Source: an uncultured Candidatus Actinomarinales bacterium (GTDB taxonomy: Bacteria > Actinomycetota > Acidimicrobiia > Actinomarinales > Actinomarinaceae). From it: a stretch of 64,000 bases of DNA. Every line of letters begins with the position of its first letter. Within the stretch, counting starts at the first letter, position 1. Below are positions 26,786-62,886 of this stretch, piece after piece. The stretch covers positions 65,420 through 129,419 of the forward strand of contig CAXBVE010000001.1 in NCBI GenBank assembly GCA_963979435.1. Direction: 5' to 3'. A program made the position numbers and the translations under genes. Under the pieces are notes generated by a model, which searched no databases, was not told the DNA's origin, and saw nothing but the letters and a program-made list of their open reading frames with translations.

Positions 26786-26867
26786 TATAAAAAGTACCCG
26801 GAGGGGGAGTCGAACCCCCACATCCGAAGATACTGGATTTTGAATCCAGCGCGTCTGCCAATTCCGC
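26786..26867 (-). tRNA. tRNA-Leu (anticodon CAA), class II long variable arm, no encoded CCA
   Basis: Cloverleaf read by hand: acceptor GCCCGGA/TCCGGGT, anticodon stem CTGGA/TCCAG with loop TTCAAAA, long variable arm, T-loop GGGGG-TTCGACT-CCCCC. It generates the spurious shadow ORF 26751..27047 (-) (MAELADALDSKS...). Confidence 0.85.
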
Positions 26868-26945
26868 CATCCGGGCTTTACTTCTATGATTATATTTCAT
26901 ATTTAATCCAAAGAGAGAAAAATAATTTAAGTTTACAATGAAAGG

Positions 26946-41842: not shown

Positions 41843-41926
41843 GCGCGGGTGGCGGAACTGGTAGACGCGCAGGATTAAGGATCCTGTGGGGTAAAACCCG
41901 TGGAGGTTCGAGTCCTCTTCCGCGCA
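41843..41926 (+). tRNA. tRNA-Leu (anticodon TAA), class II long variable arm, no encoded CCA
   Basis: Acceptor GCGCGGG/TCCGCGC, anticodon stem CAGGA/TCCTG with loop TTAAGGA, variable arm GGGGTAAAACCC, T-loop TTCGAGT. The ORF 41580..41927 (-) is its shadow. Confidence 0.85.
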
Positions 41927-41931
41927 CAAGT

Positions 41932-59554: not shown

Positions 59555-60355
59555 GTGAAGAATATATTAATTATTTCATCAAAGAAATATACCAAATTAA
59601 AAAATTATACAGATTTTGTTAGTTTGATAAAATCAAAAAAATTAGAATTCCATATTTTATTTGTTGAAGACGTAGAACAATATGATAATTATTTAAACAA
59701 AGATACACTTGTTGTTAGTTTTGGCGGAGATGGTACTGCACTTAAGGCTATGAAAATATCTTGGACCTTTGATTTACTATTCATGCCTTTAGGAACTGGA
59801 CGAGTTGGATATCTTGTAAACAAATCTGAAAATATAGAGCAAATACTTGACGAGTGGATTGAAGGCAAGAGCCACATCAATAATAGAAAAGCAATAATAC
59901 AGGATAATAATTTAAAATCACCAGCATTTAATGAAATCGTATTAATTAAAAATTCTCCAACAAGAATTCTTGATATTGTATTTAAAACTCATGACCAAAC
60001 AGTAAAACTAAGAGCTGACGGAATTATTATTTCAACATCTTTAGGCTCAACAGCATATAATTATTCAGCAGGTGGACCAATTGTACAAAATAGTCTTAAT
60101 TCAATTATCATTACACCTATCTCACCATTTTCTAAATTCCCCAGGTCAATTGTTTTAGATCAAAAGTCGCAAATTCAGATTGAAATCAAAAAAAAGCAAA
60201 ATTATGCAATTCAATTTGATGGTGTCGTCGAGTCGGAAGTAGAAAGCGATAAAGATAACAAGCTTGACTATACGTTATCAGAAAAGTCTTTACAGATAAT
60301 AGGAACAGATAATTCTCCCAGATTAGATTTATTTCTAAATCAAATTCTTAGATAA
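59555..60355 (+). CDS. nadK: NAD(+) kinase
   Basis: GGDGT motif (VVSFGGDGTAL), NE/D short motif, and DGIIISTSLGSTAYNYSAGGPIV. Confidence 0.85.
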   Translation: MKNILIISSKKYTKLKNYTDFVSLIKSKKLEFHILFVEDVEQYDNYLNKDTLVVSFGGDGTALKAMKISWTFDLLFMPLGTGRVGYLVNKSENIEQILDEWIEGKSHINNRKAIIQDNNLKSPAFNEIVLIKNSPTRILDIVFKTHDQTVKLRADGIIISTSLGSTAYNYSAGGPIVQNSLNSIIITPISPFSKFPRSIVLDQKSQIQIEIKKKQNYAIQFDGVVESEVESDKDNKLDYTLSEKSLQIIGTDNSPRLDLFLNQILR

Positions 60356-60392
60356 TCCTTTTAATAAGGATTTATCATGCTAAAATTTTCGA

Positions 60393-62018
60393 GTGACCAA
60401 ATACATATTTGTAACTGGCGGTGTAGTCTCTGGTCTTGGTAAAGGGATTACCTCTGCATCCCTTGGTAACCTTCTGAAATCACGTGGACTTACAATTGTT
60501 AATCAAAAACTTGATCCATATATCAATGTTGATCCAGATACTATGAATCCTTTTCAACATGGTGAAGTATTTGTAACAGAGGACGGCGCAACTACTGATC
60601 TAGATCTTGGTCATTACGAACGGTTTACTGGGGTGAATTTACGAAAAGATGCAAATGTGACTACTGGAAGCATTTACAGAAAAGTAATTGAAAGAGAACG
60701 TAAAGGGGATTACCTAGGAGCAACGGTTCAAGTTATTCCTCATATTACGGATGAAATAAAGAGAAGAATTAAAGGCATCTCAAATGATGTAGATGTTCAG
60801 ATTACAGAAATAGGAGGTACTGTTGGTGATATAGAGATACTTCCATTTCTAGAAGCTGCTAGGCAAATGCGAAAAGAGCTTGGTCAAGAAAATGTTATGT
60901 TTATACACGTAACTTTGGTTCCTTTTATTGGACCAAGTACAGAACTGAAAACAAAACCTACTCAACACTCAGTCTCAATGTTACGAGGGTATGGAATTAG
61001 TCCAGACATAATTGTTCTTCGTTCAGATAGAAAACTAGATGAAGATATCAAAAACAAAGTTTCACTATTTTGTGATGTAAGTTATGAGAATGTAATTAAT
61101 GCTCCAGATCTTGATGATATCTATGACGTACCTCTTAAAATGCATTCTGAGGGTTTAGATGTAGCAGTTAATAAAAGGTTAAACCTCAACACAGAAGAGC
61201 CAGAATTGAATGAATGGAAAAATATGCTTTCTCTTAAAAAAGAATCCTCTAAAGATGTTAAGATTGCAATCCTTGGTAAATATTTCGGCTTACCGGATAG
61301 CTACATGTCGGTTGTTGAATCATTAAAACATGCATGTCTTCAAAATAAAGTTAATTTAGACCTTCAATGGATTGATGCTGACAATTACGATGCTGAAGAC
61401 ATTTCTAACCTTGATGGAGTTGTAGTTCCAGGTGGTTTTGGAGTGAGGGGGATCGAAGGTAAAATTTCAGCCATACAGTATTTAAGAGAGAATAAAATTC
61501 CATTTCTCGGGATTTGTCTTGGATTACAGTGTGCCGTTATAGAGTATGCAAGAAATGTATGCGGAATTAATGAAGCTAATTCTTCTGAATTTTCACAAAA
61601 TACAAAAGATTTTGTTATCGATCTTTTACCGAATCAAGACCTAGACAAAGATGATGTTGGCGCATCTATGAGATTAGGAACATATCCTTGTAAAATTACC
61701 AAAAATACTATTACTTCAGAAATATATAAAGATGAAGTTATATATGAGCGTCATAGACACAGATATGAAGTGAATAACAAATACCGAGAAGTTTTAGAGA
61801 AAAACGGATTAATTTTTAGTGGCTTGTCTCCAGATAATAACTTAGTAGAAATGATTGAATTAAAAGACCACCCTTTCTTTGTTGCCTCTCAATTTCATCC
61901 TGAGTTCAAATCTCGTCCTTGGGAACCGGCTCCAATGTTTAATAAATTCATACAAAGCGCAGCTTCTTCTCAAAACACTGAGAAAACAACTTCTACTAAA
62001 ACGAAAGTAAAAGATTAA
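60393..62018 (+). CDS. pyrG: CTP synthase
   Basis: N-terminus [17 protein letters not shown]-terminal glutamine amidotransferase domain with GICLGLQ and HPEF. GTG start. Confidence 0.95.
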
Positions 62019-62886
62019 TAATTCTATTAAATACTTACTTGATGATTACCAAGATTATTTATCGTACTCAAAAGGATTATCAAAAAATTCAGTTGATGCA
62101 TATAGAACTGACCTCTTAAACTTATTCAAAGAAAACTCAGTAACAAATATTTCTAGTGATGCGCTCAACAAGTTAATAAAGCTAATTTCTACAAAAGAGT
62201 ACAGCCCCAATACGAAAAAAAGAAAAGTTTCCGTATTAAGACAATTTGTAAAATGGTACAACTTTAGGGAAAATTCGAAAACAGTTATTCTTGAAGATGT
62301 AACAATTAAATCTGGTCAAAGACTTCCTGAAACACTCTCCATTACACAAATTGAACAATTAATAAATTTTCATGACAAGGAAACCTTTATAAGTAAACGA
62401 AATAAAGCCATAATCGATTTTATGTATTCTACGGGATGTCGTGTTAGTGAATTATGTAATGTTAAAATTGCCGATATTGATTTTGATGAAGATTATATTC
62501 AGTTAACCGGAAAAGGTTCAAAACAACGAATTGTCCCAATTGGTTCCAAACTTAAAACTAATTTACTATCTTATCTCGACTTAAAGCTTATCAAGGATAT
62601 CTCAAATAATCCTTTTTTGTTTATTTCCCGTACTGACAATCCACTAGAACGCACTGCTATTTTTAGGATAATTAAATCAACAGCTCTTAAAACCTCAACG
62701 ACTCTAAATATCCACCCCCATACATTAAGGCACAGCGCTGCAACTCATATGCTTGAAGCTGGATGTGATCTTCGAACACTTCAAGAATATTTAGGACATT
62801 CATCTGTATCCACTACGCAAATCTATACTAAGTTAACAAAAGAATTTCTTAATGAAGTTTTTAACGAAAGTCACCCAAGAGCATGA
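62014..62886 (+). CDS. xerD: Tyrosine recombinase XerD (start codon unresolved; first in-frame ATG is internal at 62422)
   Basis: The C-terminal catalytic domain ([25 protein letters not shown]) is the track ORF 62422..62886. The same frame stays open upstream to the stop at 62008-62010 and encodes a conserved XerD N-terminal domain ([29 protein letters not shown] ... [19 protein letters not shown]). No ATG/GTG/TTG is in frame between 62011 and 62421. The 5' boundary given here assumes an ATT start at 62014. Confidence 0.6.

Follow-up and report, generated by a model that had tools for sequence, protein, structure and literature searches.

A question raised by the 64-kb stretch of DNA analysed here (64,000 nt of contig CAXBVE010000001.1 from an uncultured Candidatus Actinomarinales bacterium, referred to below as the window) is how its xerD-like tyrosine recombinase gene, which lies between pyrG (CTP synthase) and an HD-domain gene, can be translated over its whole length when its reading frame offers no ATG, GTG or TTG ahead of a conserved N-terminal half. 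Judged by its domains and by the selection acting on it, xerD is an intact, full-length two-domain gene. It probably forms part of a pyrG-xerD-HD operon and is made as a 290-aa product from an AUU codon at 62014–62016, in coupling with the termination of pyrG. Three elements of this answer we infer, namely the use of this AUU as the initiation codon, the coupling, and a purpose in low expression.

An open frame without a canonical start

The xerD frame stays open for 291 sense codons, from 62011 to 62883, until the TGA at 62884–62886, and its first canonical start, the ATG at 62422, is codon 138 of this open frame. The sequence-only reading had claimed that 137 codons pass without an in-frame ATG, GTG or TTG, and both the open frame itself and the list of open reading frames (ORFs) bore this out. 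These three codons together account for 3.07% of the codons in the window (G+C content 32%), and a start-free run of 137 codons has P = 0.014. Among the ca. 57 real genes of the window, xerD is alone in having a conserved N-terminus without a canonical start. A genome-wide habit of non-canonical starts was considered as well and rejected, as the other real genes start canonically at most 14 codons after the opening of their frames. There were two apparent exceptions to this rule: one turned out to be a tRNA-Leu gene (41843–41927), and the other a Pfam domain beginning after the ATG. The remaining long upstream-open stretches of the window were antisense shadows, or again cases of tRNA-Leu or domain position. 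The tRNA-Leu gene in question (anticodon AAG) is one of two in the window, the other being located at 26794–26876 (anticodon CAA), and it lies inside an open frame mimicking an N-terminal extension of a GATase-domain gene that starts at ATG 41932.

Conservation of the ATT at the pyrG/xerD junction

The relatives used for comparison were drawn from 24 species-representative loci of Actinomarina and from 72 metagenome matches, the majority likewise Actinomarina; the closest relatives of the window were single-amplified genomes (SAGs) and metagenome-assembled genomes (MAGs) of Candidatus Actinomarina/Actinomarinales. The junction could be classified in 64 of 110 loci (denoted by L and a number where they have to be told apart), which fell without exception into two types, 38 being of the ATT type and 26 of the TTG type. 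The ATT-type junction reads AAG ATT AA, whereby the T that ends the ATT also opens the pyrG stop TAA, and the same junction was found by direct reading in L110 and L084. This type reaches at least 11 lineages, with the XerD identity going down to 54–55% (L013, L072, L109 and L110) and to 45% (L084). The ATT corresponding to 62014–62016 was invariant in the 38 relative loci, as well as in L110 and L084, and in all of the 23 distinct junction sequences (the window's included) over which the entropies were computed. Within ±66 nt of the junction, AAAGATTAA was the sole invariant (zero-entropy) 9-mer, the mean per-site entropy beside it being 0.98 upstream and 0.79 downstream.

In the window and in most relatives, an in-frame stop is located two codons 5' of this ATT, so that nothing else can be the start there; in the window, ATT 62014 is the only conserved near-cognate codon that follows the stop at 62008 and precedes the first helix of the protein. 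The stop itself is not conserved, being replaced by TTA or TCA in L005, L006, L050 and L013, and in the longer-open frames (L005, L006, L050, L013 and L072) no canonical start was found upstream. A start at 62014 places seven residues before the first helix, as in Escherichia coli XerD (MKQDLAR-IEQF...), of which residue 7 (structure 1A0P) aligns with residue 10 of the 290-aa product. The invariance of AAAGATTAA can hardly be ascribed to the CTP synthase: the Pfam domains of PyrG (CTP_synth_N and GATase) extend no further than residue 521 of its 541, and the last 20 residues form a tail which is variable at all codon positions and closes with a conserved V-K-D. This ending is absent from the PyrG of the TTG-start clades, which links the block to the ATT-type junction and shows that pyrG does not require it. 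With no canonical start able to encode its conserved N-terminus and an ATT conserved among orthologues, xerD belongs, as far as sequence can tell, to the rare but known group of bacterial genes that start at AUU, and the NCBI pipeline already annotates it so.

Several observations weigh against initiation at ATT 62014. A second in-frame ATT, at 62026, is also a near-cognate codon located 5' of the first helix. It would give a 286-aa protein beginning MKYLLDDY, it was chosen by NCBI in the annotation of MDA9862733.1 (286 aa), and it is available in the closer relatives, being kept in the window, L001–L005, L050–L054 and L059. Moreover, L108, L109 and L110 carry in-frame ATGs 18–45 nt 5' of the same ATT, and in these three loci the Ile codon may be internal to a protein starting upstream. 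Dual coding may account for part of the invariance of AAAGATTAA. A clear Shine-Dalgarno (SD) sequence was not found before the ATT, where only GAAAG or AAGAG occurs 5–9 nt upstream, and SD-less re-initiation in E. coli has a low efficiency and is IF3-sensitive (PMC2268962).

Regarding the first of these points, the second ATT has gone in L006, L022, L055, L013, L072 and L084 (the codon at its site is TTA in L006, L022 and L055, and AAG in L013), and since these relatives are also without a canonical start, it is not the clade-wide start. It does not overlap the pyrG stop either, and the entropy of its site is non-zero, so that we consider a start at 62026 unlikely. Of the two ATT codons put forward by the sequence-only reading as non-canonical starts, 62014 thus stood, being invariant in the ATT-type loci, and 62026 fell, being replaced in relatives. 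As for the upstream ATGs of L108–L110, they occupy non-homologous positions and indicate that the xerD start is evolutionarily labile near the pyrG 3' end.

The region is AT-rich and rich in homopolymers, which makes a sequencing or assembly error that removed a canonical start possible a priori, and nothing more. An identical or nearly identical junction is present in independent single-cell genomes, in MAGs (including long-read-labelled ones) and in many metagenome contigs, and it is conserved across lineages, which leaves such an error a negligible probability. A frameshift from ATG 62042, proposed earlier from the sequence, was likewise rejected: the site reads GAC-GAT in most relatives, L001 with its 98% identity among them, and this ATG, which is in the +1 frame, opens an ORF of just 25 codons. 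The indel suspected near 62040–62045 was looked for by alignment with the relatives, and no indel was found against the 38 ATT-type loci.

In two other Actinomarina clades, making up the TTG type, xerD has a conserved TTG start (MSQKQSKK...) located 29 nt inside the pyrG 3' end. This longer overlap and the 5-nt overlap of the window have the same relative frame, and the pyrG/xerD overlap therefore seems to be ancestral, with the position of the start having shifted, as far as these comparisons go. A sequence of clade C, AAAGATTTA, was considered as a homologue of AAAGATTAA and dismissed as an A-rich coincidence, the positions being not homologous by protein alignment.

The TTG clades also bear on another explanation, namely a programmed +1 frameshift at the pyrG stop (GAT TAA T), with AAAGATTAA as the shift site and a PyrG-XerD fusion as the product. 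The xerD frame is indeed the +1 frame of pyrG, the invariant block has the size of a shift site, and a purine-rich stretch lies upstream of it. However, tRNA-Asp, once paired with GAU, is unable to pair with AUU, and the sister clades, in the same relative frame, use a start of their own. The stop stands in the context UAAU, which in E. coli terminates most strongly of all, the opposite of what is seen at the prfB shift site. In addition, we know of neither a precedent nor a functional rationale for fusing CTP synthase to a recombinase, and overall the frameshift appears very improbable.

Integrity of the N-terminal half

The ratio of nonsynonymous to synonymous substitution rates (dN/dS) was obtained by the Nei-Gojobori method on codon alignments with eleven relatives of 72–98% protein identity. 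It was 0.05–0.16 for codons 1–136 and 0.03–0.09 for the catalytic half; in all relatives except the closest, the synonymous sites were heavily diverged or saturated, with a proportion of synonymous differences (pS) of 0.6–0.8. In the 17 codons that directly follow the ATT, the entropy summed to 14.9 at codon position 1, to 7.3 at position 2 and to 18.9 at position 3, and this coding-type periodicity, which starts from the first codon after the ATT, indicates that the N-terminus is translated. Neither stops nor indels occurred in the xerD ORF across the 38 ATT-type relatives. The recent pseudogenisation considered in the sequence-only reading is thereby refuted: purifying selection on the N-terminal 136 codons is strong, with dN/dS far from 1 and no frame breaks, the coding pattern is retained and the six catalytic residues are intact.

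The same data bear on the possibility that only the 154-aa catalytic half is made, from ATG 62422, with the N-terminal half being untranslated or decaying. This ATG is the first canonical start of the frame, such a protein is annotated on 546 contigs, and a promoter-like match on the + strand (62386–62414, TTTATA-17-CATAAT) ends 8 nt before it. Nevertheless, the low dN/dS and the periodicity of the first 136 codons, together with their freedom from stops and indels in the relatives, make translation of the catalytic half alone highly unlikely. Promoter-like matches in the region were fewer than in shuffled sequences (6 vs 8.5). The match at 62386–62414 is probably due to chance, although it could in principle give a leaderless transcript of the catalytic half. 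Besides, DNA clamping by an Xer recombinase depends on the core-binding domain, which such a product would lack.

Two single loci showed broken xerD frames. In L024 (2501–3350, SAG AG-920-J05), the gene is split over two frames about 110 codons in, with the frame shifting near ...VSLKK at an A-rich run, owing either to a faulty single-cell assembly or to a genuine disruption in that cell. In L084 (1636–2160, metagenome contig MDSV01225406.1), the frame stops early (...TEQPFLEL*), before the HxxR motif; a pseudogene, a frameshift or an error of assembly could each explain this.

Identity of the product

The product has both domains and the full catalytic set of an Xer-type tyrosine recombinase, with all six catalytic residues (R-K-H-R-H-Y) aligning with their counterparts in E. 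coli XerD (1A0P). The XerD model TIGR02225 was matched over its full length with 269 bits, below its equivalog cut-off of 329.6, and the XerC model TIGR02224 came barely behind with 257.7 bits. The window protein thus shares the two-domain architecture, the catalytic residues and the N-terminal length of E. coli XerD but stays below the NCBIfam equivalog cut-offs. "XerD-like" is therefore the safer label, the name XerD resting on the names in the source records and on the synteny with pyrG, and the product is predicted to be a XerD-like dif-type recombinase. No second Xer gene was found within the 64-kb window. The Met encoded at 62422, described earlier as the conserved internal Met of box I, is indeed conserved inside the clade but is not a general feature of box I, the aligned site of E. 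coli XerD being occupied by Leu.

Table 1. Positions of the features discussed in the text; window coordinates, except for the TTG-type loci
Feature	Position	Strand	Remarks
pyrG (CTP synthase)	60393..62018	+	GTG start, TAA stop 62016-62018; ends GAT TAA; from the ORF list
In-frame TAA closing the xerD frame	62008..62010	+	two codons 5' of ATT 62014
Junction block AAAGATTAA	62010..62018	+	pyrG frame: Lys-Asp-stop; xerD frame: (A)AG ATT AA
Proposed AUU initiation codon	62014..62016	+	third base (T62016) also opens the pyrG stop TAA
xerD-like tyrosine recombinase CDS, proposed	62014..62886	+	290 codons from ATT 62014, then TGA 62884-62886
Second in-frame ATT, alternative and less likely start	62026..62028	+	present only in closer relatives
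Core-binding (SAM-like) N-terminal domain PF02899	62038..62256	+	aa 10-82, 42.8 bits (cut-off 22.3)
Catalytic domain PF00589	62335..62841	+	aa 109-277, 156.7 bits
First canonical start, ATG (Met137)	62422..62424	+	ATG/GTG/TTG-only gene callers begin xerD here
Catalytic residues	R143 (62440), K170 (62521), H236 (62719), R239 (62728), H262 (62797), Y271 (62824)	+	
HD-domain gene, 146 aa	62883..63323	+	ATG overlaps the xerD TGA (ATGA)
TTG-type loci	L007-L012, L014-L021, L023, L067-L070, L074-L080		about -72 to -44 from the KGLS anchor

Proposed initiation at the AUU

The xerD start and the pyrG stop overlap, as in termination-reinitiation pairs, and form the 5-nt AUUAA, in which ATT 62014–62016 and TAA 62016–62018 share a base. 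Since stop codons begin with T, a start overlapping in this way must end in T, and the arrangement is thus unavailable to ATG, GTG and TTG. With the TAA in the A site of a terminating ribosome, the AUU would be placed one base from the P site, and ribosomes or 30S subunits ending pyrG most likely re-initiate there, one base away, reading the AUU as fMet. A share of de novo initiation is probable too, at a junction that is A-rich and showed no significant RNA structure (z = -0.81). Neither a promoter-like nor a terminator-like site was found between pyrG and xerD, and a leaderless transcript or internal promoter before the ATT was rejected, as no promoter-like site occurs on the + strand from 61700 to 62014.

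Upstream of the ATT, the relatives have AAGAG or AAAGG as a weak purine stretch. In the window, an SD core of at least 4 nt at -20 to -4 was present at only 10 of 55 presumed gene starts, which suggests that, in this streamlined genome, most genes are initiated independently of an SD or by coupling. In E. coli, AUU-driven initiation amounts to ca. 1–2% of that from AUG (bioRxiv 10.1101/063800); an AUU output 6–8 times below AUG, approximately doubled by an upstream translated cistron, is also on record (PMC3592434). A weak AUU start would result in a low XerD level tied to pyrG translation, and such low, tethered expression would suit a recombinase needed at few copies per cell.

A stricter version, in which AAAGATTAA is a dedicated coupling element making XerD strictly dependent on pyrG-terminating ribosomes and IF3-sensitive, and thereby represents a new class of stop/start overlap, is possible but doubtful. 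If true, a genome that is streamlined and poor in SD sites and regulators would have its chromosome-dimer resolvase set at a small, fixed proportion of the translation of CTP synthase, and an undescribed overlap class would have been kept across much of Actinomarinales. The AUUAA geometry, being closed to canonical starts, might in any case be a possible natural low-gain coupling element.

Comparison with known systems

The xerD of the window would add a well-supported, evolutionarily conserved case to a very short list of bacterial AUU starts; to our knowledge, the only confirmed AUU-start genes in E. coli are infC and pcnB. Both have been reported to start at this codon (PMC3592434; bioRxiv 10.1101/063800). 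In infC (IF3), as in xerD, a conserved AUU adjoins the stop of a co-transcribed upstream gene; it drives weak initiation with partial coupling, as is likely for xerD (PMC3592434; bioRxiv 10.1101/063800). In contrast to the base shared in AUUAA and the weak or absent SD of xerD, the infC AUU lies three bases after the thrS stop (UAA-GGU-AUU) and has a real SD. Moreover, it serves the autoregulation of IF3, whereas there is no such feedback logic for a recombinase. The gene pcnB, encoding poly(A) polymerase I, resembles xerD as read here in being a scarce nucleic-acid enzyme limited by its AUU (Binns and Masters 2002, cited in PMC3592434); according to this second-hand account, an excess of the enzyme is undesirable and the inefficient AUU keeps the pcnB product low. 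The account describes no overlap of pcnB with an upstream stop, and the pcnB start was verified experimentally, whereas we infer that of xerD.

A further parallel is ebpA of Enterococcus faecalis, whose true start is an ATT upstream of the mis-annotated ATG, with expression being dampened by this rare codon (PMC4447247). As opposed to xerD, this is a pilus gene from a different phylum, has no stop/start overlap, and its start was verified experimentally. Among the termination-reinitiation pairs (ATGA, TAATG), the classical ATGA is seen at the xerD/HD junction of the same window. In comparison, the pyrG-xerD pair, with its 5-nt overlap sharing one base, needs a start ending in T, and the coupling here is putative.

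Database annotations

The identical 290-aa protein starting from ATT 62014 is present in NCBI as MBT5655633.1, and the same ATT was also chosen in the NCBI annotation of MBT3873692.1 and MDB4823350.1. In IMG, ENA, Logan and some NCBI records, by contrast, a 154-aa "XerD" (62422–62886) is on record for the 546 contigs mentioned above, and 274–276-aa versions, starting from a non-conserved TTG in the first helix, are on hundreds more contigs. The TTG used by gene callers in some lineages (codon 18 or 21) is a Ser/Leu substitution in this helix. Most automatic pipelines annotate just the second half of the gene, wrongly on the present reading, and both the 154-aa and the 274–276-aa records are systematic truncations by gene callers restricted to ATG, GTG and TTG. 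The reading proposed here thus corrects a widespread mis-annotation, in which XerD appears without its DNA-clamping domain and which could mislead surveys of Xer/dif systems in a very abundant marine actinobacterial group. A search of the literature for an ATT-start xerD or for Actinomarina start codons returned nothing relevant.

Gene neighbourhood

In the window, xerD is preceded by ppnK (NAD kinase, GTG start) and pyrG (GTG start), the three genes spanning 59555–62886. This order resembles what we take to be the Rv1695, Rv1699 and Rv1701 neighbourhood of Mycobacterium tuberculosis, minus recN and intervening genes, and is consistent with orthology to the actinobacterial XerD in a reduced genome. 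Together with the HD-domain gene, pyrG and xerD look like one tightly coupled operon. Many adjacent genes of the window overlap by a few bases, and the ATGA overlap of xerD with the HD-domain gene was also found in L108 and L109.

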